A DNA stretch of 64,000 nt, taken from Escherichia phage Turkey5. This document shows positions 38,358 to 38,670 of this stretch, one piece after another. How positions within the stretch are numbered: the first letter of the stretch is position 1; each line of letters starts with the position of its first letter. The translations under genes and the position numbers were made by a program. The notes below the pieces were generated by a model. That model worked only from the letters and a program-made list of their open reading frames with translations, had not been told where the DNA came from and did no database searches. The stretch is from sequence record PQ471516.1. One strand, written 5' to 3'.

Positions 38358-38381
38358 TTCGAAAATAAAGAAAAAAAGTTC

Positions 38382-38409
38382 TTGACAAGTTAAAATGATG
38401 TGATATAAT
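38382..38409 (+). promoter_or_regulatory. sigma70-type promoter, TTGACA-16-TGaTATAAT (copy 1)
   Basis: TTGACA at 38382-38387; TATAAT at 38404-38409 with TG at 38401-38402. Confidence 0.6.
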
Positions 38410-38473
38410 GAGCATCACGAAGTAAGTTTTCAAAATCACATGATGTGAGATTGAAAAAAAAGAAAAAAAGTTG

Positions 38474-38508
38474 TTGACAAGGTTGAACGATGTGATATAA
38501 TGTTCAAC
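38474..38508 (+). promoter_or_regulatory. sigma70-type promoter, TTGACA-16-TGaTATAAT (copy 2), -10 bracketed by a 7-bp inverted repeat
   Basis: TTGACA at 38474-38479; TATAAT at 38496-38501; GTTGAAC at 38482-38488 and GTTCAAC at 38502-38508. Confidence 0.6.
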
Positions 38509-38564
38509 ATCAAGACGACGAAGTGATTGACCTTTTTAAACACACGGATGATTCATGAAGTAAC

Positions 38565-38607
38565 AAAGGAACTGATAAGTTAAAAATACTTTTAACACAG
38601 TTCCTTT
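38565..38607 (+). promoter_or_regulatory. long stem-loop in the leader of the AAA+ ATPase gene
   Basis: AAAGGAACTG at 38565-38574 pairs with CAGTTCCTTT at 38598-38607; inner GTTAAAA/TTTTAAC pair. Confidence 0.45.
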
Positions 38608-38670
38608 ACTTTTGCCATCGGATTGGTATAATAGAAATCTCAAATTTATCCAACTAAAAGGAAACTATAC

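Follow-up and report, generated by a model that had tools for sequence, protein, structure and literature searches.

A putative transcription-control region with duplicated host-type promoters and a terminator-type hairpin upstream of the MoxR-like ATPase gene of Rak2-like jumbo phages

The spacer upstream of the ATPase gene and its promoters

The stretch of DNA studied here, called the window below, comprises 64,000 nucleotides (nt) of Escherichia phage Turkey5 (PQ471516.1). Our analysis focused on a 313-bp intergenic spacer (38358-38670) that follows a 125-aa hypothetical gene (stop codon at 38355-38357), the last one of a virion-protein block, and precedes a gene for a MoxR-like AAA+ ATPase. 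It contains promoters and hairpins that may delimit a short non-coding RNA (Table 1). Positions 37900-39100 are 99.9% identical to Escherichia phage vB_EcoM_JNE01 (OR670491, 355.6 kb, Asteriusvirus), and the name JNE01 is used in the following for the sequence of the window phage. The identity to some 35 further Rak2-like jumbo coliphages, PBECO4, 121Q, G17 and phAPEC6 among them, is 84-87% in the same interval. Rak2-like jumbo phages, which include 121Q, PBECO4, RaK2 and CBB, have genomes of about 350 kb, and the locus provides a compact, testable entry point to their transcription. The spacer ranks among the longest non-coding gaps of the window, its GC content is 29.7% compared with 37.6% window-wide, and the gene order around it is identical in all genera compared.

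Table 1. Features of the spacer and of the adjoining genes; positions refer to the window.
Feature	Position	Strand	Description
Hairpin over the stop codon of the 125-aa gene, TTATTCTCGAATCA / TGATTCGAAAATAA	38337..38368	+	14-nt arms, 93% complementary; followed by the A-tract of P1
A-rich UP-element-like tract 5' of P1, GAAAATAAAGAAAAAAAGTTC	38361..38381	+	part of the duplicated unit
Promoter P1, TTGACA-16-TGaTATAAT	38382..38409	+	TTGACA 38382-38387, TG 38401-38402, TATAAT 38404-38409; 12/12 plus TG
Hairpin near the 5' end of the P1 transcript, TTTTCAAAATCACAT / ATGTGAGATTGAAAA	38427..38457	+	15-nt arms, 87% complementary; followed by the A-tract of P2
A-rich UP-element-like tract 5' of P2, GAAAAAAAAGAAAAAAAGTTG	38453..38473	+	second copy of the 62-nt repeat core
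Promoter P2, TTGACA-16-TGaTATAAT	38474..38501	+	TTGACA 38474-38479, TG 38493-38494, TATAAT 38496-38501; 12/12 plus TG
Perfect 7-bp palindrome GTTGAAC-N13-GTTCAAC	38482..38508	.	GTTGAAC 38482-38488, GTTCAAC 38502-38508; brackets the -10 of P2; judged incidental
Non-coding leader, P2 start to T	38509..38564	+	conserved 5' end ATCAAGAC; motif ACGGAT 38544-38549
Two-tier terminator-type hairpin T, AAAGGAACTG ... CAGTTCCTTT	38565..38607	+	arms 38565-38574 and 38598-38607; inner GTTAAAA/TTTTAAC
Promoter P3, TTTACT-16-TGgTATAAT	38605..38632	+	10/12 plus TG; TATAAT 38627-38632
U-rich tail of T, ACTTTTGCC	38608..38616	+	reads TTTACTTTTG with the last stem bases
Post-terminator motif TCGGAT	38618..38623	+	A[T/C]GGAT(TTG) in other genera; GGA nearly invariant in 20 sequences
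Shine-Dalgarno sequence AAGGAA	38658..38663	+	7 nt before the ATPase ATG; read from the sequence
MoxR-like AAA+ ATPase gene (N4 gp24-like), 443 aa	38671..40002	+	presumably served by the control region
VWA/DUF2201 gene	40079-41503		downstream of the ATPase gene

P1 and P2 lie exactly where the earlier note had placed two near-consensus promoters. Both match the sigma-70 consensus (-35 close to TTGACA and -10 close to TATAAT, 16-18 bp apart) at every position with a spacing of 16 bp. The third TATAAT pointed out in the note is also present and is preceded by TGg and by TTTACT 16 nt upstream, which gives P3 10 of 12 matches; its -35 hexamer overlaps the tail of hairpin T. TGa or TGg thus stands before all three -10 hexamers, an A-rich tract resembling an upstream (UP) element precedes P1 and P2, and AAAGAAAAAAAG is located 5' of both of their -35 hexamers. 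Transcription is predicted to start at about 38416-38417 from P1, 38508-38509 from P2 and 38639 from P3. Between 30 and 48 kb of the window, only P1 and P2 combine a 12/12 match with TG, and they are two of the five exact 12/12 matches in the whole window, all of which are on the coding strand. They are the strongest-looking host-type promoters in the window, occur in one to three copies among close relatives, and may be of use as compact E. coli promoters of very high strength.

P1 and P2 are genuine tandem duplicates of one complete UP/-35/TGn/-10 promoter. The earlier note had described two copies of a unit of about 85 bp; the duplication was confirmed but not its size, since the period is 92 bp and the recognisable core, which includes the A-tract before each -35 hexamer, covers 62 nt with 82% identity. 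Both promoters are kept in the approximately 35 Asteriusvirus genomes, P1 with minor variants of the -10 hexamer. In six diverged Asteriusvirus genomes 79% of the columns of P2, 61% of those of P1, 88% of those of the P3 region (38617-38632) and 87% of those of hairpin T with its tail were invariant, compared with 38-42% of the third codon positions of the flanking genes. Judged by these figures, the spacer is under stronger constraint than synonymous codon positions.

The extended -10 sequence TGnTATAAT was found 14 times on the plus strand of the window, where 3.4 occurrences were expected, and twice on the minus strand. This excess indicates that extended -10 promoters are a real class in this phage. 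Most of the plus-strand sites are located just 5' of open reading frames (ORFs), among them those at 10149, 12752, 19073, 21567, 22756, 26153 and 41571, and several sites of the window have GTGATATAAT in common. The site at 19073 is directly followed by a hairpin, ACTCACA...TGTGAGT. It has been described that T4 early promoters are composed of UP, -35, TGn and -10 elements (PMC2988021). RpoD-like promoters with UP-like elements have been predicted in phage CBB (PMC5259590), and the Rak2-like group relies on host RNA polymerase together with phage sigma factors (PMC5259590; PMC11895373). Two other promoter types, the TGAAACG class and late promoters with the exact T4 late consensus TATAAATA, were considered for the window and are essentially absent there, the latter consensus having no occurrence in the 64 kb. 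The sequence ATAAATA, a late-promoter-like motif reported for CBB and GAP32, is found just 5' of the ATG at 30221 (30190-30220).

A hairpin precedes P1 as well as P2. In the alignment, relatives have a hairpin of other sequence at the position of the one over the upstream stop codon. The hairpin near the 5' end of the P1 transcript was present in both the minimum free energy and the centroid folds, and 69% of its columns do not vary among relatives; another hairpin takes its place in EJP2 and K64-1.

Protein-coding or host-derived content of the spacer was not supported. Its ORF list contains only ORFs of 20-36 aa, none of which is supported as a gene. An 11-codon ORF at 38548-38583 is not conserved and is interrupted in phage A4 by a stop after three codons. 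In phage WPEC3 a 31-aa coding sequence is annotated across the P1/P2 region (extracted sequence 2008-2100), which conservation does not support and which is probably spurious. Rfam gave no match, either at gathering thresholds for the whole window or at permissive E-values for 38000-39000, and a search for tRNA and transfer-messenger RNA genes found none. A comparison of the spacer with 5,426 E. coli genomes resulted in zero matches; hence it is not host or prophage DNA.

The AAA+ (MoxR-like) and DUF2201_N/VWA genes (38671-41503) form a conserved pair homologous to N4 gp24 and gp25. This pair is present in many unrelated phage groups, the ATPase matching 820 phage records, and the ATPase of fENko-Kae01 is annotated as detected by liquid chromatography-tandem mass spectrometry. 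After the VWA gene, the region 41519-41579 contains a terminator hairpin, GGAATGG...CCATTCC, with TTCTTATT, followed by a promoter TGGACA-16-TGaTATAAT (41552-41579) whose spacer consists of the perfect 7-bp palindrome ATCACTG-aaa-CAGTGAT. With its stem-loop placed between -35 and -10, this promoter resembles in layout the promoter-early stem-loop (PeSL) elements discussed below.

Hairpin T and the promoter module in the Rak2-like clade

Hairpin T had been described in the earlier note as a leader stem-loop with a 10-bp outer stem. The structure is as described, with fully complementary outer arms of 10 nt and an inner stem of 7 bp; its folding energy is -15.4 kcal/mol (z = -4.9) and none of 200 shuffled sequences folded as well. 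The label needs revision, and T is better described as a predicted clade-wide intrinsic terminator. A stem-loop is followed by a U-rich tract in JNE01 as in its relatives, the JNE01 form being atypical with its 10-bp outer stem, structured loop of 23 nt and TTTACTTTTG. The forms of the relatives are canonical: a stem of 10-11 bp with 5 GC pairs carries a tetraloop and is followed by CTCTTTTG. In BF and Yen9-03 the promoter-like site ranked first is followed about 32 nt further on by the canonical terminator-like site ranked first. At the position of the tail, TTCTCTTTTG or TTTCTTTTTT is found in relatives. ARNold had assigned the orthologous hairpin to the upstream gene as its terminator, both in G17 and in CBB (Torf215). 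The promoters and the hairpin are far beyond chance.

The regions 5' of the ATPase homolog were compared for K64-1 (Alcyoneusvirus), for BF, pEa_SNUABM_12 and fHe-Yen9-03 (Eneladusvirus), for CBB, GAP32 and XbC2 (Mimasvirus), for Munch, fENko-Kae01, XaC1 and EJP2, and for a dozen IMG/VR contigs. The common layout consists of the upstream stop codon, a promoter, 17-115 nt, a hairpin of the form (A)GGCACTG(A)/(T)CAGTGCC(T) and the tail TTCTCTTTTG. An ortholog of T was found in Asteriusvirus, Alcyoneusvirus, Mimasvirus, Eneladusvirus, the Munch group, XaC1, EJP2 and the IMG/VR contigs, with folding energies of -15 to -23.5 kcal/mol, and in each genus examined a promoter separates T from the upstream stop codon. 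The tail of T ends 50-63 nt before the ATPase ATG in 16 phages out of 17 measured. The exception is EJP2, which has a second promoter unit between T and the ATPase gene. The JNE01 hairpin is the ortholog of the clade hairpin; its stem, AAAGGAACTG/CAGTTCCTTT, differs from GGCACTG/CAGTGCC by one double change from C:G to A:T.

Compensatory changes support the stem. In the set of 20 distinct sequences both partners of three stem pairs have changed, the pairs alternating between GC or CG and AU. A score of 0.202 was obtained for covariation, compared with 0.095 for shuffled alignments, none of 500 of which reached it, and 0.03-0.10 for slid controls; a one-column misalignment of the 3' arm of K64-1 reduces the percentage of cells that are paired. 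When only Asteriusvirus sequences were folded to a consensus, they gave no covariation because they are too similar. T occurs once per Rak2-like genome, and the module as a whole is single-copy per genome. A covariance model derived from T scored 65.7 bits only at 38553-38632, the next best match in the window reaching 24 bits. Outside Rak2-like genomes, a scan of IMG/VR with the T pattern resulted only in unrelated terminators without an ATPase gene. Vibrio phage 2.275.O, the most distant relative, is without a GCACTG hairpin; it contains an unrelated tandem direct repeat of its own, TTGTGTTATAACAATATGTAAGCAGTTAAGCGCA, twice about 135 nt apart (~430-465 and ~565-600) 5' of the ATPase homolog.

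The class of the promoter preceding T differs between lineages. In Mimasvirus and Eneladusvirus it reads TGAAAC(G/A)-N13-TGgTATAAT. This form corresponds to the "divergent RpoD-like" class of the CBB paper (PMC5259590). The copy in CBB is absent from the examined portion of the promoter table of that paper; it is located more than 100 nt from the ATG and thus outside the range scanned by its authors. In Asteriusvirus, Alcyoneusvirus, the Munch group and EJP2 a host-type promoter with TTGACA, GGGACA or GTGACA is found together with TGTGATATAAT. The locus presents a swap of promoter class, with the phage-specific TGAAACG class in Mimasvirus and Eneladusvirus versus the host consensus in Asteriusvirus.

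Promoter units are present in two copies in Asteriusvirus and in three in SP27, and K64-1 has one copy and a weak one. The extra unit of SP27 (extracted sequence 502-911) exactly duplicates P2 together with about 45 nt downstream of it, and TH47 likewise has three places. Unless these cases are assembly artefacts, the copy number seems to be unstable among close relatives. In EJP2 (extracted sequence 368-685) a promoter, the terminator hairpin, a small hairpin, an A-tract, a second promoter TTGACA-17-TATAAT, a leader and ACGGATTTTGG precede the gene. This order of elements indicates that the promoter unit moved relative to the terminator between lineages.

A short motif, A[T/C]GGAT, follows the tail of T by a few nucleotides in nearly all genera, in the form caaA[T/C]GGATTTG, and a copy is usually also present before T. 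Hence, T is flanked by direct repeats. The motif is not a start codon in all lineages and has no fixed distance to any -10-like hexamer. As a promoter class A[TC]GGATT was rejected: it is not enriched in the window, and the second ACGGATGATT, at 26438, is located inside a small coding sequence.

These comparisons extend beyond the region delimited in the earlier note and point to a clade-wide module of promoter, predicted short RNA and predicted terminator before the MoxR-like ATPase gene. The best explanation is that the ancestor of the Rak2-like clade already had this module, situated about 55 nt before the ATPase start. The spacing between its terminator and the ATPase gene is preserved in at least six genera.

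Proposed mechanism and rival explanations

As best explanation we propose that the spacer is a compound transcription-control region composed of three successive units, in each of which a stem-loop is followed by a promoter; for the scheme as a whole our confidence is modest. Concerning its overall architecture, we are inclined, by a small balance of probability, to assume that strong early promoters run into a leaky terminator. P1 and P2 would be paralogous full-consensus host sigma-70 promoters of the kind used by T4-type phages for immediate-early transcription. Building on the observed elements, their conservation and the covariation of the stem, this scheme predicts start sites, early timing, termination at T and partial read-through. 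Host sigma-70 polymerase would start at about 38417 (P1) and 38509 (P2), and the transcripts would meet T after about 150 nt and 57 nt, respectively. Many of them would end near 38610-38616, resulting in non-coding RNAs of about 199 nt from P1 and 107 nt from P2, and the fraction reading through would provide mRNA for the ATPase and VWA genes. P3 may produce this mRNA independently. T would additionally stop transcription arriving from the upstream virion-gene block. In the course of evolution Asteriusvirus may have swapped the TGAAACG-N13-TGgTATAAT promoter of the clade for a host-consensus promoter and then duplicated the latter. The weak T of JNE01 fits a leaky attenuator, with P3 as a dedicated promoter that presumably arose downstream.

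Several points weigh against this model. Much of the conservation evidence comes from close genomes (84-88% identity), and the inter-genus set is in effect equivalent to no more than about 8 independent sequences. Compared with other genera, JNE01 has a weaker T, with an AU-rich stem, a loop of 23 nt and an interrupted U-run (ACUUUUG), and a simple terminator scan did not list it; termination could thus be minor. Across genera the sequence of the T stem is conserved more than a plain terminator needs, and neither this nor the presence of A[T/C]GGAT on both sides of T is explained by the model. The searchable literature contains no transcript mapping for any phage of this clade. In the RNA-seq paper on PA5oct, which is only a distant relative, no non-coding RNA among the four reported is linked to the ATPase gene.

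A short regulatory RNA had been suggested in the earlier note, and a short non-coding RNA is a reasonable prediction because a terminator-type hairpin is located downstream of promoters. This RNA could be a by-product, a trans-acting small RNA (sRNA) or part of a factor-controlled attenuator. The second of these possibilities overlaps with the compound control region proposed above and differs from it only in the purpose of the short RNA. It holds that the promoter-to-terminator unit is an sRNA gene sharing its terminator with the upstream mRNA; its products would measure about 107 and 199 nt in JNE01 and, in phages of the BF or CBB type, about 55-65 nt, and would act by pairing with mRNAs of the host or the phage or by titrating an RNA-binding protein. 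We regard this as possible, though doubtful. A promoter and a terminator that would delimit a discrete transcript are predicted and conserved, the former lying 3' of the upstream stop codon and 5' of T in each genus examined, as mentioned above. The predicted 5' end of the RNA is conserved across genera as ATTAAGAC, ATCAAGAC and ATAAAGAC, and the architecture is a fitting one, with an AU-rich, single-stranded 5' part ahead of a terminator hairpin and a U tail. Furthermore, EJP2 keeps its first promoter and T about 20 nt apart despite a second promoter that could serve the ATPase gene. ACACACGGAUGA matches the CsrA SELEX (systematic evolution of ligands by exponential enrichment) consensus RUACARGGAUGU at 9 of 12 positions (PMC4347634), which provides a lead only. 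On the other hand, the RNA has no Rfam family, and only short motifs of it are conserved. No target emerged among the 72 translation-initiation regions of the window, none of which was an outlier; the best duplex had -22.1 kcal/mol, compared with a mean of -24.3 kcal/mol for shuffled RNAs. Before T, the length of the RNA body ranges from about 20 to 115 nt; its conservation between genera is poor, and the tail has only 4 consecutive U in most genera. A role in cis is instead suggested by the conserved motif just after T, which would be outside the terminated RNA, and by the constant spacing between T and the ATG.

A specific function of the RNA appears to be favoured by the conserved start AUYAAGA, by a stem conservation beyond the need of termination and by the A[T/C]GGAT motifs flanking T. 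We therefore tentatively consider, as a minority view, that the module of about 100 nt acts as a functional non-coding RNA element throughout the clade and represents a new family of phage sRNAs or else an attenuator controlled by a factor. Its parts would be the AUYAAGA start, A[U/C]GGAU, the GCACUG/CAGUGC hairpin, the U tail and the second A[U/C]GGAU. In the attenuator version the twin GGAU motifs may bind a host or phage RNA-binding protein, with CsrA as a candidate, which would set the expression of the MoxR-like ATPase and VWA genes. If real, the short RNA would be the first candidate regulatory RNA of this clade.

A further explanation regards the units as PeSL-like mobile regulatory cassettes that are mainly recombination substrates, so that the tandem copies are a footprint of exchange instead of a selected design. 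In a PeSL, a strong sigma-70 promoter and its AT-rich upstream tract are combined with a stem-loop that is often located between -35 and -10 or over the -10 box (PMC2839356). All these components are present here; the palindrome of P2 in JNE01 looks exactly so, a hairpin precedes each of the three promoters, and the promoter downstream of the VWA gene, after a terminator, carries a perfect palindrome in its spacer. The copy number of the promoter unit, from one to three among relatives, and its changed position relative to T in EJP2 are also in line with mobility. Nevertheless, we consider it improbable that such mobility is the main role of the units. The cassette is not dispersed, as a search of the JNE01 genome gave only P1 and P2 even at E <= 10. 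Its locus is placed between conserved genes and is syntenic in all genera, in contrast to an ORFan-rich hyperplastic region. The stems are AU-rich and not of the GGGG...CCCC type, and both promoters are under constraint in about 35 genomes.

The perfect 7-bp repeat GTTGAAC ... GTTCAAC is indeed present and brackets the -10 of P2. In the earlier note it had been taken for a repressor operator, that is, the binding site of a dimeric phage or host repressor shutting off P2, which we regard as very unlikely. The dyad overlaps the core promoter, and a perfect 7-bp inverted repeat bracketing a pre-chosen hexamer occurred in 1.35% of dinucleotide shuffles of the spacer. P1 carries TGATG...CATCA, and most relatives have another repeat of 6-8 bp centred on the -10 of P2, of the general form (T)GATGTG(A)-N8-10-(T)CACATC(A): GATGTGA-N8-TCACATC in the PBECO4 type, GATGTG-N10-CACATC in the EcMJ type and an 8-bp version in ph0011. 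The TGTGA-N8-TCACA contained in it presumably recalls the 8-bp-spacer class of CRP sites. However, perfect 7-bp inverted repeats are common in this AT-rich DNA; with a loop of 3-20 nt they were found in 47% of the shuffles (mean 0.9, 3 observed in the spacer), and window-wide about 0.8 occur per 313 nt. Because of these chance frequencies the palindrome is only weakly unusual.

Conservation also argues against an operator. GTTGAAC/GTTCAAC was found in JNE01 only and is missing from all relatives examined, which have the different repeat instead. In JNE01 a 1-nt insertion cuts the repeat of the relatives to 5 bp, and together with substitutions it results in the palindrome. Register and spacing of the repeats shift between lineages, with loops of 8, 9, 10 and 13 nt. 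Moreover, each half of the relatives' repeat has another role and is conserved alone elsewhere. The upstream half is the TGTGa extended -10 region, which is kept without a downstream partner in Munch, K64-1 and other JNE01 promoters, and the downstream half, CACATCAAGAC, is the predicted conserved transcript start, which P2 of EJP2 retains without an upstream partner. The 64-kb window contains no further copy of either repeat, and a scan of IMG/VR for the palindrome gave more than 120 unrelated chance matches and was uninformative. The neighbouring genes, to which the search for a regulator was limited, encode virion proteins and the ATPase/VWA pair. Since the palindrome is not conserved, the halves of the relatives' repeat are explained otherwise and neither repeat recurs in the window, the operator was rejected and the palindrome is judged an incidental by-product, probably an accident of one phage. 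The observations of the earlier note were thus confirmed, and its interpretation holds for the promoters and the possible short RNA but not for the operator. In PBECO4-type phages the spacer of P2 reads TTGACAAGTTGAAACGATGTGATATAAT and contains TGAAACG, which resembles a -35 element in the phage-specific class of CBB, only 3 nt from TGn, compared with 13 nt in that class; this may be a relic or a coincidence.

Finally, the promoters could prime DNA replication via an R-loop in the AT-rich DNA downstream. The primary origin of T7 consists of tandem promoters followed by an AT-rich stretch, and oriF and oriG of T4 are promoter-driven origins. Two origins of T4 depend on transcription from middle promoters (PMC2988021), and the TGAAACG class found at this locus in Mimasvirus and Eneladusvirus is tied to DNA-synthesis genes by the authors of the CBB paper (PMC5259590). 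Although the spacer is AT-rich, an origin is unlikely, indeed the least likely role of all: a canonical intrinsic terminator right after the promoter releases the RNA, which would have to stay hybridised, several regions of the window are even lower in GC than the spacer (about 1st-3rd percentile), and the GC skew tracks gene orientation without a switch at the spacer.

Comparison with known systems

The make-up of P1 and P2, with an A/T-rich tract upstream, consensus -35 and -10 hexamers and TGn, is that of the early promoters of T4, and the downstream gene would be reached by transcripts passing a termination signal (PMC2988021). The -35 consensus of T4 differs, and the signals between immediate-early and delayed-early transcription in T4 are mainly Rho-dependent, in contrast to the intrinsic hairpin predicted here.

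The closest published parallel to a stem-loop over the -10 box is provided by the PeSLs of the T4-type phages RB49 and phi1 (PMC2839356). Shared features are the strong sigma-70 promoter, the AT-rich upstream tract and a stem-loop over the -10 box or upstream of the promoter. PeSLs have been implicated in insertions and deletions between close relatives (PMC2839356). Unlike PeSLs, the cassette described here is undispersed, has stems that are not GC-rich, flanks no ORFans and occupies a locus that is syntenic across genera.

The predicted path from a strong promoter to a short terminated RNA resembles two units of phage lambda. In the PR'-6S RNA-tR' unit a constitutive strong promoter gives a short terminated RNA before genes that depend on read-through, and oop is a short regulatory RNA running from promoter to terminator. 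In contrast to lambda, a Q-like antiterminator, a Q-binding element or a sigma-dependent pause signal was not identified at this locus, nor was an antisense target. DapZ and MicL are sRNAs derived from 3'-untranslated regions that have their own promoter, share the terminator of the mRNA and possess defined seeds, Hfq dependence and targets. Here, too, the promoter is placed at the end of the upstream coding sequence or after it, and the terminator is predicted to be shared with the upstream mRNA, whereas seeds, Hfq dependence and targets have been established only for those sRNAs.

Two or three strong sigma-70 promoters with the same direction and a distance of about 90-130 bp are also known from A1/A2/A3 of T7 and from rrn P1-P2. 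These resemble P1 and P2 in close spacing and common direction; they differ in that they are not sequence duplicates and are not followed by a terminator within about 60-150 nt. Apart from the clade-wide module, the region is an ordinary, well-built phage control region. It is a well-conserved new instance of element types already known: early promoters like those of T4, an intrinsic terminator or attenuator, and a layout resembling that of PeSLs.

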